A stretch of 46,551 nucleotides of DNA from a virus, in the IMG/VR virus record IMGVR_UViG_3300029578_000018; one strand, 5' to 3'. Shown piece by piece: positions 9,752-44,632 of the stretch (within the stretch, counting starts at the first letter, position 1; every line of letters begins with the position of its first letter). The position numbers and the translations under genes are program-made. The notes beneath the pieces are model-generated. The model was not told where the DNA came from. It ran no database searches and saw only the letters and a program-made list of their open reading frames with translations.

Positions 9752-12739
9752 TTACGCGAACAGGGGAGATTTGCCGGTTGCCCGGACCACCTCTTTGTTT
9801 TTCTTTACGACGTTGCGATACACCACGTCGCCGTCCATATTGATAGTAATGTTGATATCCCCGGACACTCCATCTTTATTGGACATAGCGGACATTACAG
9901 CGCGGTACACGCCGTCAGACACGGCGGAGACTATCTGGTCATTGTTCGCAACGGCTGTCCGTCTGCCGATGTTGCCCACCATCTCCGCGCCAGCTTCACG
10001 GGCGACAAACAACTGTCCCTCGTTGGGAAAACCGCCTTCGGCAAGCTTCGGAATGTAAATCGGCTCGACTTTCGTGATACTTACTCCAGGGATTTTGTTG
10101 ATTAGCCCGATTGCCAGATTCAACATTCGTATGAATCCGTTAATCGTTCGCTCAATCGTGGAAAAGATTCCGTTGATTACGCCCTTGAAAATGCCGGAGG
10201 CGAAATCGGATACAGTCGTCCAAATCCCCTTAAAGATTTTGACGGCTGTATCTCTTATCAAGGTGAGCTTTGCCAAGAAAAAGCCAACTATCGGTTTAAT
10301 GACCGTGTCGTACACCCATGTTGCGGCCTTTTTCAGCGGATCGATCACGTGTTCCTTCACCCAGCCGGTTACTGGAACGATGACATAGGTGTAGAACGCA
10401 GTCCCCGCTGCGGCGAGGACTTCCACGACTTTTAGAGAGATTTCTTTAATTTTATTCCAGATAGTTTTGACGCCCTCAATGATTCCGGAGACAATTTCCA
10501 CCGCGTTATTCCAGATGTGTGTCGCAACATCCGCCACAGATTCAGCAACGGGGCGGAAGAACTCAATGATCGGCGAAATGACTTTCTCCCACACCCAGTT
10601 TGCAGCAGTGCTCAATGCACTAACTACCGGCTGGATGATTTTCCCGTCAAACCATTCCCAAATGTTCGTAAAGAAACCAGCTATTTCATTGCCGAAATTC
10701 TGCACTATCCAGATTGCAAGGTCGGTCAGCGCCCCGACGGCGAGTCCGATCAGAGCACCAATTCCCATACCGATAGGCCCGCCAAGCGACCCGATGATTG
10801 CACCCACACCGGCACCCGCCATGGTGGAGCCCAGAGGAATAAGCACTCCATTCAACCAATTAAGCCCGTTTTTAATGGCGTCGTATACAGATACCAAGTA
10901 CGTCGGTAGCCCGGCAATAATCATGCCAACTCCGGCGGCGAGCATTCCTGTACCAATCGTTCCGGCCATGGGAACGAGTGTTGCAAGCTTTCTGGAGATT
11001 GCGGTAATCGCAGGAAGAATTCCTTTGGCGATGGACCATCCCGAAAAAGCCGCTCCAACAGCAATGGCCAGCGGCAGCAGTTCTTTGAGCTTTGCCTTAA
11101 CCTGTTCAACGTTTCTGCTCACGACCCCAGCCAAGAAATCGTACTCGGGCAAATTAATCCCGAGTCCACCAGAGCCGGTAATGCCAGCATCCGTTTTGCC
11201 GGAAGAACCCGTGTTGGACGGCAGGATGTTCAATTCGTCAAAGCCCATGGTGTAGCGCTTAAACTCCTTGGCAGCGTCTACCGCTGCATCCATGTTGTCC
11301 GAAAGATCCCCGGCGGCAACAGCCCCACGATTCACGCCGTCCCAGTCAACGTCCGTAAGCTCAAACCTGAACAGTTTAGCCAGCGCGTTCGCTAACTCGC
11401 GGACAATTTGCAGAAACGCAATGACATAAGGCAGAGCTTTAGTCAGAATCGGGATAAACAGATTGCCGATTGCACGGGACACCTGAGTGATTTCTGCTCT
11501 AAGCACACGCAGCTGGTTCGCAGGAGCTTCCAGGGTTCGGGCCATGTCGCCCTGTGCGGTCGTCACCTGTGTCATAATAGCGTAGTACCGCAATTCTGCT
11601 TTTTCCGCCTGATTCATGGCGGAAACGCTCTTGGTAATACCAAGATTCAGCGCTTCCTGCTGCAATCGCGCAACAGACAGGTCATAGCCCAATCTTCGCA
11701 GTGGCTCCAGTTCGCCTGCAATGCCGGATTGCAGCTTCTGCATGGAGTCCTCAACAGAGATGTTGAAGAAAGAGGACAGGTCATAGCCCAACTGTGTCAA
11801 ATTTTTGCTCATGGTGTATGCCCGGTCTTCTGTATCGCCAAATCCAGTCAGAAGCGTCTGGAACACACCCTGGTTCCGCATCCACTGCGCCGGGTCGATG
11901 CCCATCACAGAAGATACTTTTTCTGCGTAGTTCTGCGCTTCCTTTGCGTATTTACCCAGCGCGACGCTGAACAGGTTCAGGTCCTCTTGGTACGTGTTGG
12001 ATTCCGTGATAGCCGTTCCGATAAGGCCCACCACGCGCCGCAGCCCAGCATACAAAATTCCGAACCGAATCATGCCCGTAGCTCTACTAAACATGCTCGT
12101 TCTGCGCGTCCCGCGCTGCACAGCGGCGTTGTACTGGGTTACCATCGTAATGGCCCGCTGGAGTCTGGCGGGTAGCGCAGCAAATCCCGTTCCGAGCCGC
12201 TGCATCTCGTCAGCCAACGGACGAATCGCCGCCGCAAGCTCCTTCATTTGGCGGTTAAACTTATCCAAATCCGCCGCATCAAGCTCACGCATGACCTCCG
12301 GGAGTTTGCCGAGTTGGCTAATAAACGATGTGAGACGGGAACGTCCCAGTTCGGAGAGCGGACGCATACCGTCTGCAAGGGCAATCAGCTTATCGCCGTC
12401 CGTTGTCTTGATTTGGCTCAGCGCCGTAGATAGTGCGGCGATTTGGTTCGGCACGGAACTGGAGATTTTGACGGCGCTGACCTCACTCAGGCTTTTCAGT
12501 CCGCTGGTCAAGGACCGGAGCCTCTGGAGCTTATCTGTGCTGGTGTTTTCCAGGGCCTTGTTCAAGGAGTCCAACTGCCTGGCAGTAGTGCGCAGAGCAG
12601 ACACGCCCCCGGATGTGGCCGTTTTCAGACGAACCAGGGTATTTTGCAGCTTTTCCAGGGACGCTACAGCGCTGTCGCTGTTTTCCTTAATTTGAAACTC
12701 AATACCATGGATTTCCACATTATCCGCCATTCTTGCCAC
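9752..12739 (-). CDS. Tape measure protein
   Basis: 995 aa, helical N-terminal half, Gly/Ala-rich TM-like central block, and the canonical position after the G/GT chaperones. Confidence 0.9.
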   Translation of the reverse strand: MARMADNVEIHGIEFQIKENSDSAVASLEKLQNTLVRLKTATSGGVSALRTTARQLDSLNKALENTSTDKLQRLRSLTSGLKSLSEVSAVKISSSVPNQIAALSTALSQIKTTDGDKLIALADGMRPLSELGRSRLTSFISQLGKLPEVMRELDAADLDKFNRQMKELAAAIRPLADEMQRLGTGFAALPARLQRAITMVTQYNAAVQRGTRRTSMFSRATGMIRFGILYAGLRRVVGLIGTAITESNTYQEDLNLFSVALGKYAKEAQNYAEKVSSVMGIDPAQWMRNQGVFQTLLTGFGDTEDRAYTMSKNLTQLGYDLSSFFNISVEDSMQKLQSGIAGELEPLRRLGYDLSVARLQQEALNLGITKSVSAMNQAEKAELRYYAIMTQVTTAQGDMARTLEAPANQLRVLRAEITQVSRAIGNLFIPILTKALPYVIAFLQIVRELANALAKLFRFELTDVDWDGVNRGAVAAGDLSDNMDAAVDAAKEFKRYTMGFDELNILPSNTGSSGKTDAGITGSGGLGINLPEYDFLAGVVSRNVEQVKAKLKELLPLAIAVGAAFSGWSIAKGILPAITAISRKLATLVPMAGTIGTGMLAAGVGMIIAGLPTYLVSVYDAIKNGLNWLNGVLIPLGSTMAGAGVGAIIGSLGGPIGMGIGALIGLAVGALTDLAIWIVQNFGNEIAGFFTNIWEWFDGKIIQPVVSALSTAANWVWEKVISPIIEFFRPVAESVADVATHIWNNAVEIVSGIIEGVKTIWNKIKEISLKVVEVLAAAGTAFYTYVIVPVTGWVKEHVIDPLKKAATWVYDTVIKPIVGFFLAKLTLIRDTAVKIFKGIWTTVSDFASGIFKGVINGIFSTIERTINGFIRMLNLAIGLINKIPGVSITKVEPIYIPKLAEGGFPNEGQLFVAREAGAEMVGNIGRRTAVANNDQIVSAVSDGVYRAVMSAMSNKDGVSGDINITINMDGDVVYRNVVKKNKEVVRATGKSPLFA

Positions 12740-18643: not shown

Positions 18644-20299
18644 TTAAAATGGCCGCTTGAACACTTCCACTTTGCCGCCCACCCGCATCCGAATTTCGTT
18701 CTCCAGCAGGGACAAAGCATCCGGCGCGTCATCGTGCGGCACTTTGCCGCTCCGGGTGTAAGTGGTGACTTCCTTCATGAAATTGAAGTACTGGCTGCCC
18801 CGTTTATAGGCGGACGGATGCTTGAACCAGAAGTGTTTCTTGATGTTGTCGGACGCAAATTCAATTCGCGTCTGTTTGTTGGAAATGGTCCTTTTTGTAC
18901 GTATTCCAACGCTATATCCACGCTGCCGGACGATTTCCGCAACGTCTCTGGCGTAATACATGCCTGCGTTGTTGCTTTCAAACAGCGCGTCCGCAACGCG
19001 GTTGTCGATCAGGCATCTGGCGCATTCCGGCTTTGTGACGTCCGGCGGAGAATCATCAAACACCACGTCCACGATATACACTTCATCCCCGTACAGCGCC
19101 GCAACGGGAAGGGCGGTGCTGTCGCTTCCGCTTTCTGCGGTGTCGCACACGGCAATAACGGCGTCCGGATCACGGCCTGTGGGGAGTTCAAAGAAATAAT
19201 TCAGCTCATCCTTGTTAAAAAGCAGCCCCTTTGCTTCAAAGGGCTGCTGCTGAAATTCGCTTTCAAACTGTTCCGCGCTCAAAAGCTCCCTCTGTTCGCG
19301 GAAATACGCTGTGGTAAACACCTTTTTCCCGTCCCGTTCGTATTCGTAGTTACTCTCGTCCGTAACAGGGTCAAGTGCTGGTATTTCAATGGCTTTCCAC
19401 GCCCAGCCGCCTTTTTGCGCTTCCTCTTGGAGGTGGCCGATGGGGTCATACAGGGAATATCGGGTTCCCGTGGCGACAATGGGGGTTCCCTCAATGGCTC
19501 GGCCCAGGATATCGCCGGATATAATCTCCCACTTATCGTCCAGTCTTTGGCGGTTTTTTGCTTCCTCGCGCCCCTCTACGCAGTCATCCAGATATAGGAC
19601 GTTCGTAGCCTCCGACAAGCCCACTTGTCTTGCGTCAATAGAACGACACATGACTGTGGGAAAACGGGATTTTGACCGCAGATTCAGTATCTTTGTGTCC
19701 GCATTGGTCTGCACCAACGGAGAATTGGGAAAAACGTCATAGAATAAATATTCATTTGGCGTTTGCAGATACTCCAGGCACCCGGAATAAAAGCTTTTCA
19801 CCAGGTCGTCCCCCGTCCCTTCCATTAGGGACGACTTGTCCGGTTCCCGCCCAGACAGAAAATTGACGAAATTGATGCCCAACTGGGATTTTCCGGCGCG
19901 TTTTGGCATCGACAGCGTCAACAACCGCAGTTTTCCGTCCAAAACCTCTTGATACGCCGCCACAATAGGCCGCAGATAATGTCTTCGAGGTGCGTAGAAT
20001 TTCTTCTCCGGTTTGCGGTTCATCTCGATGTACAGCAGAAACGTGTCGAAATCGTGCGGTGCGTCAAAGCACATGGCCTTTTTGTACACGTCAAACAAAG
20101 AATCCGCCGCATTTGCGCTGCACTTGTGCAGGGCCGCAGAACTCAGTTTTCGCAAATCCTTGCTCAGCTCATGGGCCAGGGTGAAATCATCCGGTTCCAG
20201 TTGTCGGCATACGGATAGAAGGTCCATGTACGGCACATGGTCGGACGGATTCCGCGCAATATGCTGTTTTATGCGTTCTGATAGTTTTGCGTAGTCCAT
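18644..20299 (-). CDS. terL: Terminase large subunit
   Basis: 551 aa, Walker-A-like LSMPKRAGKS, nuclease-half acidic motifs, and a position directly upstream of the portal gene. Confidence 0.9.
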   Translation of the reverse strand: MDYAKLSERIKQHIARNPSDHVPYMDLLSVCRQLEPDDFTLAHELSKDLRKLSSAALHKCSANAADSLFDVYKKAMCFDAPHDFDTFLLYIEMNRKPEKKFYAPRRHYLRPIVAAYQEVLDGKLRLLTLSMPKRAGKSQLGINFVNFLSGREPDKSSLMEGTGDDLVKSFYSGCLEYLQTPNEYLFYDVFPNSPLVQTNADTKILNLRSKSRFPTVMCRSIDARQVGLSEATNVLYLDDCVEGREEAKNRQRLDDKWEIISGDILGRAIEGTPIVATGTRYSLYDPIGHLQEEAQKGGWAWKAIEIPALDPVTDESNYEYERDGKKVFTTAYFREQRELLSAEQFESEFQQQPFEAKGLLFNKDELNYFFELPTGRDPDAVIAVCDTAESGSDSTALPVAALYGDEVYIVDVVFDDSPPDVTKPECARCLIDNRVADALFESNNAGMYYARDVAEIVRQRGYSVGIRTKRTISNKQTRIEFASDNIKKHFWFKHPSAYKRGSQYFNFMKEVTTYTRSGKVPHDDAPDALSLLENEIRMRVGGKVEVFKRPF

Positions 20300-20323
20300 G
20301 CGGCCTCCATTTTTGCATAAAAA

Positions 20324-20360
20324 GAGACGGGTTCCAGAAAGAACTCGTCTCTTTTATTTA
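20324..20360. terminator. Bidirectional intrinsic terminator 24 nt upstream of the terL start
   Basis: agagacgggttc/gaactcgtctct forms a 12-bp stem with 1 mismatch and a 6-nt loop. T-runs follow the stem on both strands. Confidence 0.7.
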
Positions 20361-20365
20361 CTTGG

Positions 20366-21160
20366 TTATCCTACAAGTTCACAATCGTACCAATACCCTG
20401 AGCTTCCACACGTTCCCTCGAGCGTTATCGTGTCTCCAACCTTGATTTGCTTGAGCGCATCTTCTTGGTCTTTTTCAAATTCGGCTATATAAATCACGAT
20501 CGTTCCGCCAACGTTTGTCTGCATAGTCAGCGTCGCGCCTCCCGTCAGGTTAAGCAAGCCGCTGCTCGAAAGGCCAGCTATCTGCCCTGTAACTTTGTAA
20601 CGATTGCCCTTATACTTTTCGTCTGCCGCAAGCTCGTTTTCCTTATATGCGAGGTAGACTTCCTCGAACGTAACTACATGTTCGAGCTTCGGGGTCTTCT
20701 TAATGTCCTTTTCTCCGCACGACTCGCACTTGTATTCCTCGTACCCTTCGGATTCCTCCGTGGCGGCCACACTGTCCACCAGCACCCACTTGTGTTCACA
20801 GGGCTTTTCTTCGCCCGACTGCTTCGGCTCGTCCCCCTTGGTTGGCTCCTCGACGGCGGGATTGTCCGGCTGTTCCGGTGGCGTCTCCCCACTAGAAAAG
20901 ATTAGCGCCGCCGCAATAAACGCACAGAAACAAACTGCGGTGACAATCAAGGGCTTTGCGACTTTACGCCGCTTGACCGCGTTTACAATTGTCCACGCGA
21001 TTCCGCCCAGGAAGCCCAACATGAATGTCCATGCCAGAAACATCTCGGGGTCCTTGTTTTCTATAGACGCAAGCAGAGCCAGAAACTCCATCAACGTGCC
21101 CATTACGATGAGTACGATTTGCCAGCCCCTTAGTTTTTTTCGCTTTTTCTCCTCCTCCAT
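20366..21160 (-). CDS. Multi-pass membrane protein with extracytoplasmic Cys motif and C-terminal OB-fold-like (tRNA_anti-like) domain
   Basis: Three hydrophobic helices, a Pro/Glu linker, CEHKW...CESCG, then AADEKYKGNRYKVTGQI.... The start is set at ATG 21160 (GGAGG upstream). Confidence 0.7.
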   Translation of the reverse strand: MEEEKKRKKLRGWQIVLIVMGTLMEFLALLASIENKDPEMFLAWTFMLGFLGGIAWTIVNAVKRRKVAKPLIVTAVCFCAFIAAALIFSSGETPPEQPDNPAVEEPTKGDEPKQSGEEKPCEHKWVLVDSVAATEESEGYEEYKCESCGEKDIKKTPKLEHVVTFEEVYLAYKENELAADEKYKGNRYKVTGQIAGLSSSGLLNLTGGATLTMQTNVGGTIVIYIAEFEKDQEDALKQIKVGDTITLEGTCGSSGYWYDCELVG

Positions 21161-21210
21161 TTTCCTTTTCCTCCACATTTATTTTCTCCCGGGTAGCCGG
21201 GGGAATTACT

Positions 21211-21972
21211 TCATCTCGCGCCCGTTGCCAGGATCGGCTCGTGCTGGCCCTTGACCCATTCCTTGTTTTTTCCGTACCGGTAAAATCCCTCGTAAGTTTT
21301 CCGGTTGTTCACGATACTTTGCACCGTGCTGATAACGAACGGCTTCCCGTTCCGGGTGGTATACCCGTCCTTGTTGAGACTGTCCACGATTCCATTAAGG
21401 GTCATGCCGCCGTCCCGAAGCTCAAATACCCGCCGGACAACAGCCGCTTCTTTCTCGTTGATGCAGAGCGCACCACCTCGAACTTCATACCCCATAGGTG
21501 CTCGACCGCCAGAATATCCGCCACGGGAGGCTTTAACTGCTCTGCCAGCGCTCGTGCGCTTGTTGATGTTGTCTCTCTCCATTTCGGCGCACGTCAGGGT
21601 GAACGCCTTGAGCATCCCGGCAAATACACCGAATTGCCCGAAGTCCTCGCAGATGCTGATTAGCTCAATGCCTTTGCGCAGCAGTGCGCCCTGGTAGTAA
21701 AAGTATATGTTGATGTCTCTGGCCACTCGGTCAGATTTCGCAACTACGACAGCTTCGTAAGGGGGGTTGTTCACTTCTCCGTAAACGATCTCATCGAACC
21801 CGGGGCGGTACTTTGCGCCGCTCTCTCCCTCGTCAGAAAACCATCGCAGGATGTTCATGTCGTTCTTGCGGCAGTATTCCTCTATCTGTTCACGTTGCAC
21901 GTCCAGCCCAAACTTATCTTCTCCGGTTTGCCCGTCTGTGCTCACGCGGATATATGCAACCACGTTTTTCAT
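21211..21972 (-). CDS. Serine recombinase, short form (resolvase domain plus partial Recombinase domain, no zinc-ribbon or coiled-coil)
   Basis: YIRVSTDGQ (catalytic Ser), SDRVARD, then the GRAPMGYE... recombinase domain. It ends at 253 aa. The start is ATG 21972 with AAGGAGGAG upstream. Confidence 0.85.
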   Translation of the reverse strand: MKNVVAYIRVSTDGQTGEDKFGLDVQREQIEEYCRKNDMNILRWFSDEGESGAKYRPGFDEIVYGEVNNPPYEAVVVAKSDRVARDINIYFYYQGALLRKGIELISICEDFGQFGVFAGMLKAFTLTCAEMERDNINKRTSAGRAVKASRGGYSGGRAPMGYEVRGGALCINEKEAAVVRRVFELRDGGMTLNGIVDSLNKDGYTTRNGKPFVISTVQSIVNNRKTYEGFYRYGKNKEWVKGQHEPILATGAR

Positions 21973-21993
21973 ACGGCTCTCCTCCTTTGGAGT

Positions 21994-22011
21994 CAATCCA
22001 AAATTGGATTG
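21994..22011. promoter_or_regulatory. Palindrome CAATCCAA-AA-TTGGATTG in the recombinase 5' leader (operator or recombinase site candidate)
   Basis: Perfect 8-bp arms with a 2-bp spacer, just downstream of the predicted recombinase transcription start. Confidence 0.4.
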
Positions 22012-22023
22012 GCTTCTACGGTT

Positions 22024-22053
22024 ATTGTATCACACAGTAAACGTAAATGTCAA
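22024..22053 (-). promoter_or_regulatory. Promoter for the recombinase: TTGACA-18-TACAAT with TG extension and an upstream A-tract
   Basis: Read on the minus strand. The A/T-rich block 22056..22088 sits where an UP element would. Confidence 0.55.
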
Positions 22054-22195
22054 GCCGCCTTTTTGTTTTTTTCTTTTATTTTTTGTGGGCATTTTGGGGC
22101 TTACCCGGCCCCGCTCCCGCCCTTGATATCCCCCGCCCCGGTCATGTCGCGCGTGGCCCCGTCTCTGCAAATTACGCAAAATCATGATTTTGCTA

Positions 22196-22223
22196 TTGAC
22201 AATTACATATAATCTGATATAAT
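22196..22223 (+). promoter_or_regulatory. Near-consensus promoter TTGACA-16-TGaTATAAT driving the plus-strand island operon
   Basis: Exact -35 and -10 hexamers plus an extended -10 TG, about 150 nt upstream of the 22372 ATG. Confidence 0.65.
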
Positions 22224-22371
22224 GGTATCCGTACAGCAGGGGAGCGCACCCGCCGCCGGTCAAGCAATGCGGATACGCTCCCCACACCAGACCAGAGGCC
22301 CAGCGCGTACAGTGTACCACGCCCGGGCTACCTGGTCAAGAGATAGGCCAGTAAGGCCGGGAGGTAATACA

Positions 22372-22791
22372 ATGGATTATACAACAGTACTTGCAAAGGC
22401 AACGCAGACACTTGAACAGCGCAAAGACCGCAGCGCATGGGGCCGGGGCGTGAATGAGTACGCCGTAGACATGCTCCAGCAGCTCACGGACTACTACAAG
22501 GGCGGCTATATCTCCGGTGAAACTCTGGAAAACTGCACCGCTTGCCAGATTGCGGCCTTGAATGGGGCGCGCAACTGGAGTGAATACAGCTGGGGCGGCT
22601 CCGCTCTGGTCTATGATGGGGACATCGCCGCCGCCCTCTGCAACCCCTCCGAACTCAAAAAGACCCGCAACGGGGAGCGCAAACCGAACAGCCGGGAAGA
22701 ATGGCTTGATGTGCAGGCCAGGGCATTGCATCAGGCTTTCCGCCGGATGTATGGAGCTATCCGGGCCGCCCGGCAGGAGGTGCAGGCATGA
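22372..22791 (+). CDS. Hypothetical protein (139 aa)
   Basis: GGAGGT lies 6 nt upstream of ATG 22372. The longer track ORF start at 22222 lies inside the -10 element. Confidence 0.7.
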   Translation: MDYTTVLAKATQTLEQRKDRSAWGRGVNEYAVDMLQQLTDYYKGGYISGETLENCTACQIAALNGARNWSEYSWGGSALVYDGDIAAALCNPSELKKTRNGERKPNSREEWLDVQARALHQAFRRMYGAIRAARQEVQA

Positions 22792-23012
22792 GGAAGTACA
22801 CGCAGAAGCAGCTCCGGGAGCTTGTGAAACTTGGCTGCGCAGAGGATTACACCCACAAGCCCAGCGAGTACATTTACACACTTCGGAGGCTGGACAAGAT
22901 CGGCTACTCCTCCGGCGTGTACGGCCTTAACGGCGGACTCGTGGAAGATATGGAAACCGGGCAGCTATACGCCATTATCGGGCGTTGCTCCAATCTGTTT
23001 ATCTTGTTTTAA
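22788..23012 (+). CDS. Hypothetical protein (74 aa)
   Basis: ATGA overlap with the upstream stop. Confidence 0.65.
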   Translation: MRKYTQKQLRELVKLGCAEDYTHKPSEYIYTLRRLDKIGYSSGVYGLNGGLVEDMETGQLYAIIGRCSNLFILF

Positions 23013-23024
23013 GGGGGTGCAGGC

Positions 23025-23093
23025 ATGAGCGCTAACGAGATTGCCGCCAAGGTGCAAGAGCTTAGAGAGCTGCGCCGCTTTACTTTTGCTTGA
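23025..23093 (+). pseudogene. 22-codon ORF (MSANEIAAKVQELRELRRFTFA), possibly the remnant 5' end of a lost gene
   Basis: Good RBS, but it stops after 22 codons. Its stop overlaps the -35 of the next promoter. Confidence 0.3.
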
Positions 23094-23118
23094 CCCGCTC
23101 CGGCGGATGCGGTACAAT
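23090..23118 (+). promoter_or_regulatory. Promoter TTGACC-17-TACAAT
   Basis: Hexamers and spacing read directly. AAGGAGG and a TTG start follow within 25 nt. Confidence 0.55.
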
Positions 23119-23140
23119 CGAGATGTAAGGAGGTGCTGGA

Positions 23141-23215
23141 TTGCTATCTGTCGTGCTGCTGATCATCTGGTTTCCGTTGGCCGTCCTGGCCGACGTGGTC
23201 CGCAAATCTAAGTAG
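23141..23215 (+). CDS. 24-aa hydrophobic peptide MLSVVLLIIWFPLAVLADVVRKSK (TTG start)
   Basis: AAGGAGG lies 7 nt upstream. One TM-length helix with a basic C-terminal tail. Confidence 0.45.
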   Translation: MLSVVLLIIWFPLAVLADVVRKSK

Positions 23216-23262
23216 CTTGTCAATCATTTGGGAGCAAAACATTTTAGTTGGAGGTAAATAAA

Positions 23263-23544
23263 ATGGTTAAGATCAAAGTTGAAAACGTGTATCCCAGCGG
23301 CGGATTCGTCCGCTTGCCGACGGAAGATGGCGGTCCGTCCGTCTACGCCATGGAGGGCGATTTTTTCGAAGGGCGCGGTGTTGATGACAGCGGCAACGAT
23401 TACACCATCTATTGGTGGCCTATCGACGGGTATGACCCCGAGACAGACGATGATTCTGACGCCTGCGATTGGGCGGCCCCGGCAGCCATTGTCGCGGACG
23501 GGGAAAAGCGGACGCTGGTTGCGTCCGCAGAGCTGGAGTGGTGA
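23263..23544 (+). CDS. Strongly acidic small protein (93 aa, 21 D/E vs 6 K/R)
   Basis: GGAGG lies 8 nt upstream of ATG 23263. Residues counted by hand. Confidence 0.7.
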   Translation: MVKIKVENVYPSGGFVRLPTEDGGPSVYAMEGDFFEGRGVDDSGNDYTIYWWPIDGYDPETDDDSDACDWAAPAAIVADGEKRTLVASAELEW

Positions 23545-23616
23545 AAGGATGATTTTGCCTTGCCAACCTCGCCGTATCCGGCAGTATTACTAATAGATGA
23601 TCTTCAAGGTAACAGG

Positions 23617-23649
23617 CCGCCCCGGAATAGCTCCGGGGCGGTTATTTTA
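23617..23649 (+). terminator. Intrinsic terminator of the plus-strand island operon
   Basis: ccgccccgg / ccggggcgg form a 9-bp GC stem followed by ttatttta. Confidence 0.75.
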
Positions 23650-23655
23650 TGCCCT

Positions 23656-23698
23656 GCCCGCAACGGCGTTTTAATGGCGTTTTGCGGGCTTTTGCTGT
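23656..23698 (+). terminator. Second, tandem terminator-like hairpin
   Basis: gcccgcaa / ttgcgggc form an 8-bp stem followed by ttttgctgtt. Confidence 0.45.
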
Positions 23699-23737
23699 TG
23701 GGTGGTATTGGGACACCGCCGCCAATGCAACACGCTC

Positions 23738-24037
23738 TCACTCTCCCCAGCCGTCGCCCTCATCGCCCGGTCGGGTAGTCCACTCCTTGAGGATTGCTAT
23801 TGCGTCGGCAGGCATGCCCGGCAAATCTCTTAGTCGCTCAAAAGCGCGGAGTGCGCTTGCCTTGGTGCGCATTAACCCTGCAATCTCTTTGTCGCGCAAG
23901 TAAGCCTTACTGTCCTCAAGGAGTTGTTTTTCCTCCCCGGATAAGCTGTCAATATCGACACCACGACCCAGCGTATACACTCGTTGTGTATCGTCGCACA
24001 TTGTACATTCCAACAGGTGGGGATAATATCCAGTCAT
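23738..24037 (-). CDS. Hypothetical protein (99 aa)
   Basis: AAAGGGA RBS. It is the first ORF downstream of terS. Confidence 0.6.
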   Translation of the reverse strand: MTGYYPHLLECTMCDDTQRVYTLGRGVDIDSLSGEEKQLLEDSKAYLRDKEIAGLMRTKASALRAFERLRDLPGMPADAIAILKEWTTRPGDEGDGWGE

Positions 24038-24120
24038 TTTTTTCCCTTTCTACCGTAGCCCCTCGGCTAATACATAAAACCTCTCTTGCTCGATTATACC
24101 ATGTAGACCGACTAATGTCA

Positions 24121-24257
24121 AAAGTCGCTGCAAAAGTCGCCCGGTTTTGCGCGAAAGTCGCCGATAGTCGCTAAACCGTGTATAACCCCGGGAAAATCGT
24201 TGCCCCTACTCCGAAAGTTGCTGAATAGTCGCTAAAAAAATCAGTTTTCATAGTCGC
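24121..24257. repeat. Array of six AGTCGC (minus strand: GCGACTWT) repeats plus one AGTTGC variant
   Basis: Copies at 24123, 24135, 24156, 24166, 24227 and 24252, with the variant at 24216. Spacings are 12, 21, 10, 50, 11 and 25 bp. Confidence 0.8.
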
Positions 24258-24891
24258 AAGACGCCGCCTCGATGTACTTCTTCTGGAGTTCTTCGGGCGG
24301 TGTTTCTGTCCCAAGGGGATTGTTGGGCGTGAGAACGACCTCTTGTTTGTCGGTCATGCCGAAAAAGTTCTTTGCTCGGAAAATGTATGTAATCTGCGGA
24401 ATTTTCCCCTGTGAGACCAATTTTGCATCGATTCCGGCCAAAATTTGTTTGGCTTTTTTTATCATGCCAGCCCTCACGGGGCCCAGCGATCCCTTTTGCC
24501 AGTCCAAGACCGTTTGAGTTACGGCACCGAGAGCGAGGCACATATCCTCCACTGTGGGGATTTGTCCTTCCTCTACGCACTGTTGGAAATAGTCGTTAAG
24601 CTTATCGGCGCATTCCTCATCGGTTTTTACGCATGACCTTTTGAAGTATTGGAATGACTCCCTAACGATTTGCGAGATCTCTTCATTTGTTGCAGTACAC
24701 CTGGCCGTGACAGACGCTGATGCCGCGCCTCTGGTGTGCGAGATGGCATTCTCTCCTCGTTCTTGTACGATGATCTTGCGGATAGTCGGCTCAGAAAGCC
24801 CGTTTTGTTTTGCCACAGTCGCTATATGCTTACATGCGTCATAGTCGGCAAGGACTTGTTCTCTCATAGTTTGCGTGATTTTACTTGCCAT
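24241..24891 (-). CDS. terS: Terminase small subunit
   Basis: N-terminal HTH (LSEPTIRKI). LNDYFQQCVEEGQIPTVEDMCLALG and ITYIFRAKNFFGMTDKQE match the usual terS C-terminal pattern. Confidence 0.8.
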   Translation of the reverse strand: MASKITQTMREQVLADYDACKHIATVAKQNGLSEPTIRKIIVQERGENAISHTRGAASASVTARCTATNEEISQIVRESFQYFKRSCVKTDEECADKLNDYFQQCVEEGQIPTVEDMCLALGAVTQTVLDWQKGSLGPVRAGMIKKAKQILAGIDAKLVSQGKIPQITYIFRAKNFFGMTDKQEVVLTPNNPLGTETPPEELQKKYIEAASCDYEN

Positions 24892-25107: not shown

Positions 25108-25182
25108 TGGAACGGGCGGCTGGAGTCGAACCAGCACATACGGGAGTCAAAGTCCCGTGCCTTACCTTTTGGCTACACCCGC
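25108..25182 (-). tRNA. tRNA-Gln (anticodon UUG), CCA encoded
   Basis: Hand-folded 75-nt cloverleaf. Acceptor GCGGGTG/CGCCCGT, anticodon arm CGGGA-CTTTGAC-TCCCG, T arm GCTGG-TTCGACT-CCAGC. Confidence 0.85.
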
Positions 25183-25359: not shown

Positions 25360-25839
25360 CTATTTTACACCACCTGAAACGTGGTTTGGGGCCACATTTT
25401 CAATAATTTTTGCGTTTTGCGCAATCAGCCACAGGAATTTATCTTTTCGCCGCCGAAACGTGCGCGGGCTTATCCCGGCCGGGGATATCATCTCGATGGG
25501 GTACTGTTTCTGACTGTCGCAGTTTCGCATGATTGCCCATACCAGCTTGCGCCGCACGTTCTCATTGTCAATATCCCGGCCCACGTTTTCTATGGCGTAT
25601 TCCACGGCCCGCATTTTCTTCGTTTCCGGCCAGCTCTCAATGATTGTCAGCCGTTCCGCCTTGCGTTCCGCTATCCTACTGTTGCCGGAGCCATGCGGCA
25701 TACCAGACATGGCATAGGCCGACGACTCCAACACTTCTTCCCGGGCCGCATTGTACGCACGGACCCGGCGGGGATAGCCCCTGACATAGGCGATGCACTC
25801 CATTCGGATATCGTAGGGGAGCGAGTATTTGTTGCTCAT
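25360..25839 (-). CDS. Candidate late-gene transcriptional activator (RinA/sigma-region-4-like)
   Basis: 159 aa, last early-region gene before the tRNA and terS. The family call rests on position and a weak pattern only. Confidence 0.45.
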   Translation of the reverse strand: MSNKYSLPYDIRMECIAYVRGYPRRVRAYNAAREEVLESSAYAMSGMPHGSGNSRIAERKAERLTIIESWPETKKMRAVEYAIENVGRDIDNENVRRKLVWAIMRNCDSQKQYPIEMISPAGISPRTFRRRKDKFLWLIAQNAKIIENVAPNHVSGGVK

Positions 25840-28012: not shown

Positions 28013-28411
28013 TCATTCTCCTTTTTCCAGCATATCAGCCGCCGTTCTTAAATCATCCGGTAGCATAATAGGTACTTCGTAGATATTCGCATCGGCCCAT
28101 TCTGCATATTCGCGCAGGGTTTCGGCAATTTCTTTATGTGATGGCTTCACGGGGCCTCCTTTCACACCGCCACACGGGATGGGGAATCCAAGCCCCTGCA
28201 CGTTGGCGATTGGGATAGGGCGCAGGATAGCAGCCACCTCCTGGCTCGCCCGCCTGTTCCATTTCTCAATAACCAGTTTCCGGCTGTTGTATGTGCCTGT
28301 GTTGCAGAAACACTTCATGCACCGAACGTAGAACCGCGTTGTTGTCAGCCCCCACTCTTCAAACGCTCTTGCCTCGCCCCCGCAGAACGGGCAATATTTA
28401 AGCTCCTGCAT
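28013..28411 (-). CDS. Lar-like restriction-alleviation protein with a C-terminal extension
   Basis: KYCPFCGGEA...VRCMKCFCNTG...VIEKWNRRA matches the Lar family pattern. The start is set at ATG 28411. Confidence 0.6.
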   Translation of the reverse strand: MQELKYCPFCGGEARAFEEWGLTTTRFYVRCMKCFCNTGTYNSRKLVIEKWNRRASQEVAAILRPIPIANVQGLGFPIPCGGVKGGPVKPSHKEIAETLREYAEWADANIYEVPIMLPDDLRTAADMLEKGE

Positions 28412-29789
28412 TCCATTCGCCCTCCCGCACCTGGAATGCATCGCCGAGCTGCACCGTCTCCGGGAAATTGTGCTGCGTGGTCTGAATGGCGTACTTGTCG
28501 ATCTCGGTTGCGTAGTATCTGAGCAACCACGGCTGTACGCCCAGCTTGTCCAGGGCGATATGGCCGCAGCTCATTCCGTCGTACATCGACAGCACTTCCA
28601 CCGGCTCCGCCGTCAGCCCTTCGAAGTGGCTCATAATGTGGGCGATCACATCCACCGTCCAACCGTTGCCCAGCATCTTGTAGGCTTGGCTGTCGCTCAC
28701 CGGGAAAACATACTCCTCCGGCACGGTCTGGAGGCGCATACACTCGCGGACCGTCAGTTTGCGAATGATGTAGCAACCGTCTCGCAGTTTGATTGGGTAC
28801 TCCTTGCCCTTGACGGTGATACGCCCATCCCGTACCTGATAGATTGGCATATCCTGCGTCCCGCAATATTCGTACATTTCGCAAGATGTCGTCAGACAGT
28901 CGCTTTTCTCCCGCATGGCGCGGCCCCGGCGGGCCTTGCTCCCCGGCATAGCAAGGTCTACACACTCGCCCGGTGCGATGTCCACATACCCCTGCTTTGT
29001 CGCCTCTCGTACCCGCACCGGCACGGCGTAAAGCCCGGTTTTTGCGCCCACGCCCCCACCATTCCCGCACAAAGTCACACTCTTACCGTCCGGTGAATAA
29101 ACACGGTATTGTTGGCTGTCTTGCTTTTTGTCTTTCGCGTCGTTTTCAATGGTGCCGATACGGACAGGCACGGCTATGCAGTCGTATTGCTGCTTCGCGG
29201 GGTTCGGATTGTTTATCCTCGGCACAAGGTTGTTTTCGAGTTTTCCCATGTGTGCGTCAGCGGTTCGTGCTTTTCCGTTTTCCATTCCATTGACGATGAT
29301 TGGCTCCGCCGCACCGTTAAAACTGAATTTTCCGGGTTCTTTTATGGTCTTAATCACGGAGGACAGCCCTCCATGCGGGCCATGCGACGCCCGAAGGGTA
29401 TATGCTTTTTCTCTCCACGCAATGCCCGTTTCCAGAATGTCCCGTAACAGGATTCCCCTGTCCTCCGGTTGCTCAACACGGACTTGACTGTATGTACCGT
29501 CCGGGTTCCGTCTGCCAACCCAGTAAATGCGCTGTCGGTTCTGTGCGGAAACCAAAGCAGAGTTGATAAGCACCGGCTCCACGCCCAACTCTGCCGTGAT
29601 CTGCGCCCGGATGGCGGGAGACATGGATTTGTTGTTCTCATACAAAAAATAGTCCGGCTTGTACTTATCCCGAGCGATCCGGTAATTCAAAAACAGTTCC
29701 CAGCCGATGCCCTCCGCCGTCGTCTCGCGGTGTTTGGTCTGGGAGATACTCCAATGGGTGCAGGGGCTTCCGCCGATAAGCAATTTCAT
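28398..29789 (-). CDS. DNA (cytosine-5)-methyltransferase with permuted motif order (IV-X, then I-III)
   Basis: GGSPCTHWS (IV) at aa 6-14, YENN (VI), QNRQR (VIII), LTVRECMRLQTVP (IX) and LGNGWTV (X). LSMYDGMSCG (I), ATEID (II) and QLGD (III) follow at aa 399-452. Confidence 0.8.
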   Translation of the reverse strand: MKLLIGGSPCTHWSISQTKHRETTAEGIGWELFLNYRIARDKYKPDYFLYENNKSMSPAIRAQITAELGVEPVLINSALVSAQNRQRIYWVGRRNPDGTYSQVRVEQPEDRGILLRDILETGIAWREKAYTLRASHGPHGGLSSVIKTIKEPGKFSFNGAAEPIIVNGMENGKARTADAHMGKLENNLVPRINNPNPAKQQYDCIAVPVRIGTIENDAKDKKQDSQQYRVYSPDGKSVTLCGNGGGVGAKTGLYAVPVRVREATKQGYVDIAPGECVDLAMPGSKARRGRAMREKSDCLTTSCEMYEYCGTQDMPIYQVRDGRITVKGKEYPIKLRDGCYIIRKLTVRECMRLQTVPEEYVFPVSDSQAYKMLGNGWTVDVIAHIMSHFEGLTAEPVEVLSMYDGMSCGHIALDKLGVQPWLLRYYATEIDKYAIQTTQHNFPETVQLGDAFQVREGEWNAGA

Positions 29790-42472: not shown

Positions 42473-42924
42473 GTTTTTCTAACTCCTTCCATAATCGTCT
42501 TTGTTCTTCCTGTGTGAGTGTCTGGACGGCGGCTATGAATAGTTCTCGCTTGCTGCACTCGTCCATTTGTTCTATTATATCATACTTTTCGCAAAAACAC
42601 ACGATTTATTTCCCCCTCGTAAAAAAATATTTTCACCTATTCCCCCAAATAGGACAAATATTGCATACCGCGTTGCCCTATAATAGGCAACAAAGGGATA
42701 AATCTTGGGTTATGTTGGCCCCGCCGCCCCCGCACCGGGCGGCAGGGCCGATATAGCAGATAGCCCATCAGGCTGTCATCTGCTACGATTTAAGCATAGC
42801 AGTGCCGCGAAACCCTGTCCACATGCAATCCGGGGAACCGTGCGACCGATGTAGGGCGAATGGTCCCCGCATTTGAGATTCTGTCCCGCCACAGGTGAAA
42901 TCTACTTTATGGAGGCGAATAACT

Positions 42925-43497
42925 ATGTCTGCGTTGCAGGAAATTGCGGAAAACATTGAGCAATACCCAAAAAAGATTCGCGAGGCAAAGGAAAAGAAAA
43001 GGTACACCATCAACGACATCGTGGATCTGTCCGGCGTGTCAAAGTCCGCCGTGTCAAAGCTCCTGGACGGATCACAAATGGACCCGAAGCTCTACAACTC
43101 GGTCGCCATGTGCATGGTGCTGGATCTGTCGCTTGACGAACTGTTCGGGTTGGACAAGCCTATAGATCACCCGGAATCTATGCAGGCCAGGATACATCAA
43201 CTGGAGCTGGAAAACGCGCATTTGTCCGGTAACGTAAAAAGGCTGGAAGAAGTAAACGCCATACAGAAGGACCAAATGCGCACTCGCAAGCCGGTCATCT
43301 TCGTCCTGCTTGGTATGTGCGCCGTGTTGGCCATGTGCCTGGTGGCGTACCTGTTTATTGACTCGCAAATCACGGCCCAAGGGCTTATCCGCAACGGACA
43401 GCCCACCGCCGTGGCGTGGTTTGTTATTGTCATAGCAGCCACTGCGGTGATAGCCTCTACGGTCATCATCTCTATGGCCCTGCGCAAAAAAGTGTGA
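42925..43497 (+). CDS. Membrane-anchored XRE-family HTH protein (HTH, coiled coil, two TM helices)
   Basis: YTINDIVDLSGVSKSAVSKLLDGS is an HTH. ELENAHLSGNVKRLEE is a coiled coil. VIFVLLGMCAVLAMCLVAYLF and AVAWFVIVIAATAVIASTVIISMAL are TM helices. GGAGG RBS. Confidence 0.7.
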   Translation: MSALQEIAENIEQYPKKIREAKEKKRYTINDIVDLSGVSKSAVSKLLDGSQMDPKLYNSVAMCMVLDLSLDELFGLDKPIDHPESMQARIHQLELENAHLSGNVKRLEEVNAIQKDQMRTRKPVIFVLLGMCAVLAMCLVAYLFIDSQITAQGLIRNGQPTAVAWFVIVIAATAVIASTVIISMALRKKV

Positions 43498-43524
43498 AAA
43501 AAGGCCGTCCCACATGGGGCGGCC
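43497..43524 (-). terminator. Minus-strand terminator between int and the lysogeny genes
   Basis: ggccgtccc/ggggcggcc stem with a T-run on the minus strand only. Confidence 0.4.
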
Positions 43525-43549
43525 ATGTCACAATATGAAGGAGGATACG

Positions 43550-44632
43550 ATGAACTGCGTTAAGTGCGGTGGAGTTTTGCCGGATGGTGCTCTGTTTTGC
43601 CCAGCATGCGGAAAGCGGCAATCCAAACAATCCCGCAGGGCCATCAAGAGGCCCAACGGATCCGGCACGGTTTATAAACTGCAAGGCCGAAGGAGCCGCC
43701 CGTGGGTAGCGGCAAAAAGTAAAGTGATTATAGGGTATTACCCCACGCGCAAAGACGCGCTGGAGGCTCTGGAACGCTTGGCAGGGAAGGATTTGACAGA
43801 GCGGTATAATATGACCTTCAGGGAAGTATTTGAAGCCTGGAAGGAGGAACATTATAAGGAAATAGGCCCCCGTGGGGTGGAGTCATATAACCGGGCTTTT
43901 GATGTGTTCCAGCCGCTCCACGATGCAAGATTCCGCAGTTTGCGGACAGCAGACTTTCAGGCGGTCATGGACAAATATGCGGATAAATCCCACAGCACAT
44001 GCAGCAAGTACAAGCAGCTTGTTACGCAGATGTCCGCATGGGCCATCCGGGAAGAAATTGCCACAACAAGCTTTGCAAAATTTATCCATCTGCCAGAAAA
44101 CGTGAAAAAAGAAAAGGAAATCTTTTCCGATTCGGACATTGAGAAACTGGAGAAAAACGGAAGCGACACCGCAAAAATTATCCTGATGCTAATTTACACG
44201 GGCATGAGAATCGGAGAGCTTTTCGGTCTCCCGCTGGCCGACTATCACGAAACCTACGTCATCGGGGGAGAAAAGACCGCCGCCGGGCGCAACCGGGCCA
44301 TCCCCATCAGGCCGGAGGGCCGGGCATACTTTGCATACTTTGCCGCCAGGGTGAAGGGTGCGCTTTTGCTGTCCGGCTATACCGGCCAACAGGTACCGGC
44401 AAATTTCCGTCGACGGGATTACTACCCGTTACTGGAAAAGCTCAAGATCGAGCGGAAAACCCCGCATGCCACACGGCACACCTACGCCAGCTGGGCCAGA
44501 AGATCAGGCATGGCCACGGAGATTTTACAAAAAATATTGGGCCACGCCGACTATTCCACAACGGCAAATATTTATGTCCACACAGATATTTCTGAGCTGA
44601 TTGCAGCTGTAGACACGGCTGGCAAAAAATAG
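43550..44632 (+). CDS. int: Tyrosine integrase with N-terminal zinc ribbon and AP2-like arm-binding domain
   Basis: CVKCGG...CPACG, RPNGSGTVYKL, and the catalytic TGMRIGEL / HATRHTYAS / LGHADYSTTANIYVH. AAGGAGGA RBS at ATG 43550. Confidence 0.9.
   Translation: MNCVKCGGVLPDGALFCPACGKRQSKQSRRAIKRPNGSGTVYKLQGRRSRPWVAAKSKVIIGYYPTRKDALEALERLAGKDLTERYNMTFREVFEAWKEEHYKEIGPRGVESYNRAFDVFQPLHDARFRSLRTADFQAVMDKYADKSHSTCSKYKQLVTQMSAWAIREEIATTSFAKFIHLPENVKKEKEIFSDSDIEKLEKNGSDTAKIILMLIYTGMRIGELFGLPLADYHETYVIGGEKTAAGRNRAIPIRPEGRAYFAYFAARVKGALLLSGYTGQQVPANFRRRDYYPLLEKLKIERKTPHATRHTYASWARRSGMATEILQKILGHADYSTTANIYVHTDISELIAAVDTAGKK

Follow-up and report, generated by a model that had tools for sequence, protein, structure and literature searches.

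The DNA examined here is the IMG/VR virus record IMGVR_UViG_3300029578_000018, a stretch of 46,551 nt (46.5 kb) that is called the window throughout, and the locus under study is the interval at 20300-24240 that separates its small terminase gene (terS) from its large terminase gene (terL). This interval is probably an ancestral, lineage-wide hotspot for accessory genes, with a fixed cis-acting scaffold and a divergent-promoter switch, rather than an inserted island. It is carried by a large phage family, temperate siphophages whose hosts are gut Oscillospiraceae and Clostridia. Read in the late-gene sense, the scaffold began with an array of GCGACTWT repeats at the terS stop codon, followed by the terminators of a cargo operon, the operon itself (usually antisense) and its conserved leader; it continued with divergent sigma-70 promoters and a universal purine-rich element, a gene for either a recombinase or an Xre-like helix-turn-helix (HTH) protein, and a gene for an exported protein resembling superinfection exclusion (Sie) proteins, and it ended with a strong terminator abutting the ribosome-binding site (RBS) of terL.

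The borders of the locus were set by the two terminase genes. One open reading frame (ORF), at 18644-20299, was clearly the large terminase (PHROG_38, 7.6e-48; NCBIfam TIGR01630, 48.3 bits against a cut-off of 41.65). The other, at 24241-24891, was probably the small terminase (PHROG_606, 9.1e-10; Pfam GP3_package, 4.7e-5, which is under the cut-off); searches of NCBIfam and the PDB with the terS protein gave no significant match.

A TerL-based scan of IMG/VR produced 80 loci with a TerL 67–100% identical to that of the window. Both terminase genes could be located in 67 of these relatives, and in all 67 they were separated by 2769–4661 bp (median 3520). An interpretation made earlier from the letters and ORFs of the window (the sequence-only reading) had regarded the interval as a 3.9-kb mobile cargo island of lower G-C content, inserted with its own recombinase between terminase genes that are normally adjacent, and had proposed a comparison with related phages for genomes in which terS abuts terL. 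When the comparison was made, terS abutted terL in 0 of 67 relatives, and no empty site was found among INPHARED phages, the 80 IMG/VR relatives or 18 genome loci. That reading had itself named a gene order universal among relatives as evidence to the contrary, and this is largely what was found, because the gap and its scaffold occurred in all 67. The gap was also kept in prophages with TerL merely 34–39% identical to the window's; it stayed contiguous in integrated prophages on contigs of up to 219 kb; and in Clostridium phage Maintenon, a cultured outgroup with TerL 36% identical, a gap of 2.65 kb with small ORFs lay between the annotated terS and terL.

An insertion was equally hard to find in the interval itself. 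Repeats bracketing 20300-24240 were 13–19-mers at chance level only, with no target duplication or terminal repeats. The G-C content was 53.4% (0.534), compared with 54.8% (0.548) for the window, 52.1% (0.521) for terL and 49.0% (0.490) for terS; it exceeded that of both flanking terminase genes, and the description of the interval as lower in G-C did not survive. Several observations still agree with an inserted island: near-identical phages differ in the single cassettes that they possess, a recombinase is present, and distant pac phages (TP901-1-like, lactococcal) have overlapping terS and terL features under the terL match. However, set against a gap found in every relative, an unexceptional composition and a recombinase slot that is syntenic down to a terL identity of 34%, the inserted island is very improbable and is largely refuted.

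The position of the recombinase gene was examined in a scan of one genome per species, which yielded 18 loci from metagenome-assembled genomes of Oscillospiraceae and Clostridia with recombinases 62–77% identical to the window's. In at least 12 of the 18, the prophage order was terS, antisense genes (often encoding an FtsK-like ATPase), recombinase, terL and portal, with TerL 34–39% identical; these recombinases therefore lay between terS and terL rather than in unrelated genomic contexts, and the other loci were truncated contigs or unresolved. Since the recombinase is syntenic within the gap across deep TerL divergence, it is a component of the packaging module and not the vehicle of an island. 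A small mobile element carried by this recombinase, as the sequence-only reading had suggested, was thus contradicted by the fixed slot as well as by the lack of empty sites, target duplications or terminal repeats in the material compared. Its comparison with moron architecture stood in part: promoter-gene-terminator units do lie between packaging genes, three units having their own consensus promoters and terminators, and single cassettes are missing from collinear relatives, but the locus as a whole was never absent (0/67) and the nucleotide composition was not deviant. The locus is of the accessory or moron-hotspot kind, with a resident regulator or recombinase as a feature of its own.

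Within this constant frame the contents were exchanged. Coverage of the window was mapped with 30 relatives that have a TerL identity of 97% or more (the close relatives), and cassettes were also counted in a census of 68 gaps. Among the close relatives the gene for the exported transmembrane (TM) protein with an OB domain was present in 9, the window's recombinase in 13, and the cargo genes p139, p74, p93 and p99 in 11, 6, 2 and 10 respectively. The short linkers, on the other hand, stayed conserved while cassettes were gained and lost between near-identical phages: the terL-adjacent terminator was found in all 30, the segment at 21150-21200 in 26, 22050-22150 in 24–27, the leader at 22250-22350 in 29, 23150-23200 in 30, the terminator region at 23600-23700 in 24–26, and the sequence from 24150 onwards in 30. 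A motif, AGGAGGTGCAGGCATGAG, comprising an RBS and start codon, was repeated between the plus-strand genes (copies at 22775 and 23012); a first run of seven codons, MWRKRKM, was common to the alternative exported proteins; and the segment at 23090-23118, with an internal promoter-like site, reappeared as a linker in other relatives. The window itself resembles a recombinant, its terL-proximal half being like L003 and its terS-proximal half like L019. Cassettes would most likely be swapped between linkers by homologous recombination at these short conserved junctions.

Two relatives had unusual structures in the same region. L029 was an apparent inter-clade recombinant, with a portal 95% and a recombinase 99% identical to the window's, a terL of 83% identity and a terS of the 47% type; this mosaic suggests that the gap and terL region is where crossovers between the early and the structural module take place. 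The GenBank relative MT835537 (L001), which has a recombinase different from the window's, carried an additional insert of 1.4 kb (11310-12738) between terL and the TM-OB gene, encoding a Bro-N/antirepressor-like protein, a 74-aa protein and a ribbon-helix-helix protein, which makes the terL-proximal linker an insertion point itself.

In an integron-like platform the recombinase would capture cassettes and place them behind a resident promoter, which would also account for a row of variable cassettes driven by a promoter, with the recombinase gene divergent from it. There is scarcely any likelihood of this: the enzyme is a serine recombinase rather than a tyrosine IntI with attI and attC cassettes, the junctions are RBS and start-codon linkers instead of attC-like sites, the same cassettes accompany either recombinase type or the HTH protein, and the allele boundaries, at 22140 and 22285, lie off the palindrome centre.

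The features of the locus are collected in Table 1. Those named by the sequence-only reading were mostly recovered. All of its ORFs were present, and an independent public gene call by the Joint Genome Institute (JGI) on the same contig (3300045988, Ga0495776_006671) agreed, with products of 253, 270, 139, 74 and 93 aa. Its promoters were confirmed, three sites matching at 11–12 positions of 12 with a TG and the internal site at 10; the 8-2-8 palindrome was located in the recombinase leader; the bidirectional and tandem terminators folded as it had described; its short-form serine recombinase had Resolvase and Recombinase domains and lacked the zinc ribbon; its three-TM protein with an OB-fold-like domain had three hydrophobic segments and a tRNA_anti-like match; its 'very acidic' 93-aa protein had a computed isoelectric point (pI) of 4.05; and its 22-codon remnant proved to be a genuine stump, the complete 91-aa gene occupying the same place in relatives.

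Table 1. Features of the terS-terL locus and its borders (positions are those of the window; LSR, large serine recombinase; promoter matches are counted over 12 consensus positions)
Feature	Position	Strand	Remarks
terL (large terminase)	18644-20299	-	right-hand border of locus, late-gene sense
Strong bidirectional intrinsic terminator	20320-20355		minus strand has TTTTTAT after the hairpin
270-aa Sie-like protein	20366-21178	-	three TM, Cys4 ribbon, extracytoplasmic OB domain; variable cassette
Short serine recombinase, 253 aa	21211-21972	-	LSR-type catalytic domain and recombinase domain; ends at HEPIL motif
8-2-8 palindrome	21994-22011		CAATCCAA-AA-TTGGATTG; recombinase leader; candidate operator or crossover site
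Recombinase promoter	22053-22024	-	TTGACA-18-TACAAT; 11/12 and TG
Universal purine-rich element, ~75 nt	22067-22145	- (terL sense)	GGGGnGGGGGATAT..GGCGGnAGCGGGGCCGGGTnAGCCCCAAAA..CCCGCAAAAAATAAAA; between divergent promoters
Perfect 18-bp palindrome	22176-22193		GCAAAATCATGATTTTGC; abuts -35 of cargo-operon promoter; operator-like
Cargo-operon promoter	22196-22223	+	TTGACA-16-TATAAT; 12/12 and extended -10 TG
Conserved 5' leader of cargo operon	22224-22371	+	found in 57 loci
p139 cargo gene	22372-22791	+	in 46/68 gaps; most widespread cargo gene of the window
p74 cargo gene	22788-23012	+	in 32/68 gaps; tied to neighbours by repeated linker AGGAGGTGCAGGCATGAG
22-codon remnant of 91-aa Gam/RecE-C-terminal-like gene	23025-23093	+	intact gene in relatives
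Internal promoter-like site	23090-23118	+	TTGACC-17-TACAAT; 10/12
24-aa hydrophobic micro-protein	23141-23215	+	LLSVVLLIIWFPLAVLADVVRKSK; RBS AGGAGG 7 nt upstream
p93, acidic protein, rare cassette	23263-23544	+	pI 4.05; in 2–3 relatives only
Tandem intrinsic terminators closing cargo operon	23615-23643 and 23656-23689	+	conserved in 24–26/30 close relatives
p99, independent unit with own promoter	23738-24037	-	in 10–11 relatives
p99 promoter	24121-24093	-	TTGACA-17-TATAAT; 12/12 and TG
Array of six direct GCGACTWT repeats	24121-24257	-	at and just past terS stop codon
terS (small terminase)	24241-24891	-	left-hand border of locus, late-gene sense

Nine promoter-like sites were found in the promoter scan, compared with 3.8 +/- 1.9 in shuffled sequences. 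The promoters of the recombinase and of the plus-strand operon are divergent and about 145 bp apart, and the former has a TTTACG box within its spacer and a CCGTAGA box past its -10. Each type of regulator was accompanied by operator-like repeats of its own. Among closely related phages the promoter region occurred as two alleles, each strictly tied to one type of recombinase. The palindrome GCAAAATCATGATTTTGC sat 221 bp upstream of the recombinase start in all 17 loci with the window's recombinase, and was replaced by TTGCAATATTGCAA in all 17 loci with a recombinase of 190 aa; no recombinants of palindrome and recombinase were seen in these 17 + 17 loci, despite a shared 100-bp segment between the gene and the palindrome. 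The 8-2-8 palindrome, which had a single copy in the window, was similarly linked to this recombinase type among the 30 close relatives. Promoters of the rec254 family had TTTACG/CGTAAA boxes around their -35 and -10; under a strict pattern, TTTACR...YGTAAA boxes flanked the -10 in 21 of 61 rec254-type promoters and in 0 of 58 small-recombinase promoters. Loci of the HTH type had their own repeats at both promoters.

The arrangement might also be read as a DNA invertase switch, in which phase variation results when the recombinase inverts either the cargo operon or the promoter that drives it. Consistent with this are PHROG_125 'DNA invertase' matches, a weak 15-nt inverted repeat (22176-22190 and 23544-23558) that flanks the plus-strand operon, and the opposite orientation of cargo genes in one clade. 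However, the second arm of the repeat is part of the rare p93 cassette, unlinked to the recombinase, and cargo ORFs were oriented 140 to 2 in one direction. Apart from this pair, the direct and inverted repeats considered as possible ends of an island or of an invertible segment were matches at chance level. The palindromes are single-copy and the promoter segment was never inverted in 30 close relatives, both of which argue against such a switch, and the invertase explanation is considered highly improbable. An inverted promoter allele was looked for among the same relatives and rejected, as the two alleles were different sequences and never inversions of each other.

The recombinase in this slot was assigned by its Pfam matches (Resolvase, 2.9e-24; Recombinase, PF07508, 2.6e-12, 47.3 bits against a cut-off of 21.1), and it retains the catalytic serine and the Arg/Asp set of LSRs. 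No zinc ribbon or coiled coil was found in it, nor a match to PF13408, the protein stopping at the HEPIL motif after 253 aa; LSRs have a zinc ribbon with embedded coiled coil and a length of about 450–700 aa. Its closest solved relatives in the PDB, by their catalytic domains, were TP901-1 Int (1.1e-9) and TnpX (2.8e-8). Neither does it have the small-recombinase architecture of a catalytic domain and short C-terminal HTH in ~180–210 aa; the other recombinase that fills this slot in relatives (190–207 aa; PHROG_125, 6.3e-65) does have it. Homologues 36–77% identical ended at 247–272 aa, right after the HEPIL motif; 112 representative clusters (at 50% clustering, E<1e-30) were nearly all of 236–290 aa; and full-size LSRs (467–503 aa) showed up only from ~34% identity downwards. 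Judged from these homologues, the short recombinase is not a broken integrase. It does not serve as the integrase of the element either: a tyrosine integrase with an N-terminal zinc ribbon lies at 43514-44632 (+), beside an HTH repressor-like gene at 42895-43497, so that the serine recombinase is not required for lysogeny, and the gap was contiguous in prophages on long contigs.

The occupant of the slot varied in kind and not in place. Of the 68 gaps in the census, 43 had a small resolvase/invertase-type recombinase (190–207 aa) and 21 had the short 250-aa type, about 64 in total; the gene invariably shared the strand of terL and lay in the half of the gap nearer to it. Far relatives without a recombinase had an Xre-like HTH protein of 72–84 aa in the same slot, and some loci held both recombinases in tandem (L111, L201, L210 and L211, with a short 250-aa and a small 186–190-aa type). 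In L055 the slot contained an HTH protein followed by a small recombinase. The residues R9, S11, D81, R82 and R85 were invariant in 30 homologues of the window's recombinase (36–100% identity), and with all catalytic residues kept the short protein most likely also recombines DNA, at a predicted single site per genome. Two cognate sites in cis were not seen, the candidate palindromes being single-copy in the 46.5-kb window. The literature was searched for recombinases encoded between terminase genes and for serine recombinases that cyclise DNA, with no relevant result; papers on plasmid prophages of P. larvae and B. cereus only show that additional small serine recombinases are common in Firmicutes phages.

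One further function, compatible with the hotspot reading but by itself unlikely, is that of a Cre/loxP-like module, in which the recombinase acts on one res-like site per genome that overlaps its own promoter. With ~2 kb separating it from the candidate pac site upstream, this site would be duplicated in the terminal redundancy of the first headful, in concatemers and in dimers; recombination between the duplicates would close injected DNA into a circle, or resolve multimers, with no need for host RecA, and the recombinase would also autoregulate, as do Tn3 resolvase and beta recombinase. The cre gene and loxP site of phage P1 are close to pac, and terminally redundant P1 DNA can be cyclised by Cre. 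The invariance of the catalytic residues and the occurrence of the candidate sites once per genome are consistent with such a module, as are the boxes of rec254-type promoters, which form inverted repeats of ~33 bp across the -35 and resemble a res subsite that binds a dimer. The slot between the pac candidate and terL is conserved even at a terL identity of 34%, and it is filled by two unrelated recombinase types, suggesting selection for the activity and not for one protein; headful-type affinities are also apparent (the SPP1 portal, GP3_package, and a TP901-1-like TerL at 25% identity). Yet some relatives have an HTH protein alone in the slot, which indicates that recombination is dispensable; classical small resolvases require supercoiled substrates; the scheme presupposes a packaging mode, a pac site and an extent of terminal redundancy; and neither a second site nor a recombination product was seen. 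It is rather improbable that the full version holds, with Cre/loxP-style circularisation and monomerisation of the genome by the same protein that represses an immediate-early cargo operon, and the short enzymes forming a distinct class devoted to phage-genome topology.

The most general component of the scaffold was the purine-rich element. It occurred as one copy, always in the terL sense, in 77 loci identified with nhmmer, and its signature was recovered from more than 160 contigs. A pattern scan of IMG/VR returned at least 120 stretches, at least 87 of them further loci with the full element; among those listed with the full element, terL lay 1.2–2.7 kb downstream on the same strand in 68, while 18 were too short to judge and 1 lacked terL (68/69 assessable with terL). 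The element was present whichever regulator followed. The A-tract at its 3' end is a predicted UP-like element for the terL-sense promoter. Inspection of the alignment for RNA structure revealed invariant G/C runs and no convincing covariation, and no second copy was found in the window, for instance upstream of terS. The leader of the cargo operon contained a helix (22290-22295 with 22331-22336) in which three compensatory pair changes were observed among 48 unique sequences, in haplotypes of 27 and 21, and which may be a regulatory RNA structure.

At the other end of the scaffold, the bidirectional terminator stood ~20 nt ahead of the terL ATG. It was conserved in 30/30 close relatives, and a canonical terminator ~20 nt before terL was found in 42 of 47 distinct upstream regions from all clades, the hairpin sequence being clade-specific. 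This leaves no room for a promoter belonging to terL, so that late transcription would have to read through. These elements could be the parts of a late-transcription checkpoint, like the PR'-tR' of lambda with morons placed between, an explanation that is possible though on the unlikely side. The purine-rich element and its sigma-70 promoter would be the late entry point, the regulator and Sie genes would precede the terminator, and an antiterminator or activator would let RNA polymerase reach terL and the structural genes. In favour of a checkpoint are the terminator without promoter room, the fixed orientation and single copy of an element that is indifferent to the regulator following it, and a putative late activator at 25360-25839 (PHROG_248, 2.1e-4) upstream of terS. 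Against this, no antiterminator gene was identified, the element has no copy upstream of terS, it lies upstream of the adjacent promoter's transcript rather than inside it and shows no covariation to indicate an RNA structure, and leaky termination could be enough.

The scaffold was closed on the terS side by the GCGACTWT repeats. Six of the nine matches in the window fell within 24121-24257, 2.27 matches being expected for the entire window. Arrays of 7–9 copies occurred in the clades with terL of 80% and 77% identity, although not in the 67–69% clade. The array is a plausible candidate for a pac or TerS-binding site. A tRNA-Gln(UUG) gene was observed at 25108-25182 (-), between the putative late activator and terS, and the gap of phage Maintenon contains tRNA-Trp and tRNA-Gln genes. 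An Rfam scan returned just the tRNA-Gln and a sub-threshold SR1-antisense match on the terminator. A C5 cytosine methyltransferase gene was also noted in the early region (28398-29789, -).

The exported protein encoded next to terL matched Pfam tRNA_anti-like (8.4e-10) and, weakly, PHROG_8545, 'superinfection exclusion Sie-like' (8.2e-8), which is an annotation-level family; its three hydrophobic segments were seen by hydropathy. A membrane-anchored prophage product similar to the Sie family is therefore present, within the limits of that weak match. Comparison with the PDB gave no significant match. Where the TM-OB gene is lacking, its place was taken by a gene for a 160-aa lipoprotein or a 148-aa TM-OB protein.

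Among the cargo genes, the commonest was one that the window has lost, since the full-length 91-aa gene was intact in 49 of 68 gaps. Its product resembled the C-terminus of RecE (PHROG_434, 5.3e-13) and, weakly, Mu Gam (1.8e-3). The p139 family comprised 2235 clusters in metagenomes. A PDB profile search with p139 was empty; its AlphaFold2 model had a mean pLDDT (predicted local distance difference test) of 63.7, with the conserved core residues 68–106 below 50, and Foldseek found no match of E<0.7 in the PDB or BFVD, although with such a model this outcome is uninformative. The region of the 24-aa peptide was conserved in 30/30 close relatives with changes that were mainly synonymous or conservative, and on this pattern the ORF is judged a real gene, although it was absent from the output of the public gene caller. 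A small hydrophobic peptide under purifying selection is one mark of type I toxin-antitoxin systems; for the antisense partner there was a weak promoter-like site on the minus strand (9/12, 23270-23241) and no Rfam match. The peptide could be type I toxin-like or membrane-active.

The sequence-only reading had called the plus-strand operon opposite to every surrounding gene, which is correct for this window but not for the clade with terL of 74–77% identity, where homologous cargo genes run in the sense direction. In that clade (L106, L127, L155, L055 and others) homologues of p74 and the Gam-like gene were on the terS/terL strand, implying that the cargo operon was inverted relative to the window's clade at some time in evolution. 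In more distant relatives (L071, L081 and L086-L101) a soluble FtsK/SpoIIIE-like ATPase of 234–250 aa (Pfam 7.8e-31; PADLOC SspH/mad8-like P-loop matches) was encoded in the antisense operon, on the stretch from terS to the slot of the recombinase or HTH protein. That the cargo serves anti-defence or exclusion is a guess, supported by the Sie-like PHROG match and by the Gam/RecE-C-like gene of relatives.

Taken as an accessory-gene hotspot, the locus has as its core the divergent-promoter switch, in which a DNA-binding protein would be co-transcribed with the exported Sie-like protein in the late-gene sense. This protein is here the short serine recombinase; relatives have an Xre-like HTH protein or a small recombinase of the resolvase/invertase type in its stead. 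Probable targets of the DNA-binding protein are the type-specific repeats at its own promoter and at that of the opposing cargo operon, and it would repress both promoters. The cargo operon would then fire when DNA enters a naive cell and be damped as the regulator builds up; in the lysogen the unit of regulator and Sie genes would continue to be expressed, with the terminator keeping it separate from terL; and late transcription would read through the terminator into terL and the whole structural operon.

Certain points weigh against this reading. The switch, the binding and the recombination are predictions from sequence, and exchange of cassettes by homologous recombination is deduced from the conserved junctions. 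Operators were assigned as candidates by co-inheritance and position; the linkage of palindrome and recombinase could come in part from physical proximity (~200 bp), and because the two palindromes near rec254 differ in sequence, one protein would not obviously bind both. The sense orientation of the cargo operon in the 74–77% clade means that the divergent layout is not universal. The identification of terS depends on modest scores, and p139, p74, p93 and p99 had no functional match in Pfam, PHROGs, PADLOC or NCBIfam.

The locus has counterparts among known systems. Like the morons and hotspots of other phages (lambda bor and lom, stx between PR' and the lysis genes, the HK97 type), it holds autonomous units in the late region that differ between near-identical phages, and one product is Sie-like; unlike them, it is ancestral and lineage-universal, it has a cis-scaffold and a resident regulator or recombinase, it shows no compositional anomaly, and it splits terS from terL. 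A serine recombinase beside divergent promoters with type-specific inverted repeats, and one (candidate) site per replicon, recalls resolvase-res of Tn3 and gamma-delta and beta-six of pSM19035. Tn3/gamma-delta resolvase and the beta recombinase repress their own and the divergent promoter. They differ from the present protein, which has the LSR-type catalytic and recombinase domains without a C-terminal HTH, and which occurs outside any transposase or plasmid context.

With large serine recombinases (TP901-1 Int, TnpX and CcrB) the catalytic and recombinase domains are homologous (PDB, 1e-9), the alignment spanning the first ~246 aa of CcrB; the protein here is nevertheless of ~250 rather than 450–700 aa, is not the phage integrase, and has neither the zinc ribbon nor the coiled coil, the domains by which LSRs recognise att sites and set directionality. 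The likeness to cre-loxP of P1 consists in an additional site-specific recombinase with a single candidate site near the packaging start of a headful-type temperate phage, while the differences are a serine instead of a tyrosine enzyme, an integrated instead of a plasmid prophage, and a function that is here wholly inferred. Finally, the TM-OB protein is comparable to Sie2009 (lactococcal) and Ltp (S. thermophilus) in its small size, its attachment to the membrane (by an anchor or as a lipoprotein), an extracytoplasmic domain, a promoter of its own in the prophage and a PHROG_8545 match; it differs in that its gene lies in the packaging and not the lysogeny module, and in its OB (tRNA_anti-like) domain and Cys4 ribbon.

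If the hotspot reading is true, a large and abundant family of prophages in human-gut Oscillospiraceae carries a fixed cargo slot within its packaging module. Genes that are candidates for exclusion, anti-nuclease or anti-defence roles would be naturally collected in this slot, whose conserved linkers might serve for mining or engineering the cassettes. For annotation, terS and terL lying apart should not be taken as a sign of insertion, nor should additional phage recombinases be presumed to be integrases or markers of mobile elements. To our knowledge, no member of the short serine recombinase clade (~250 aa, with more than 100 clusters at 50% identity) has been characterised biochemically, and its minimal architecture could interest recombinase engineers. 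The terminator abutting terL, together with the purine-rich element, would point to a way of controlling the late genes of these phages that is so far unstudied.

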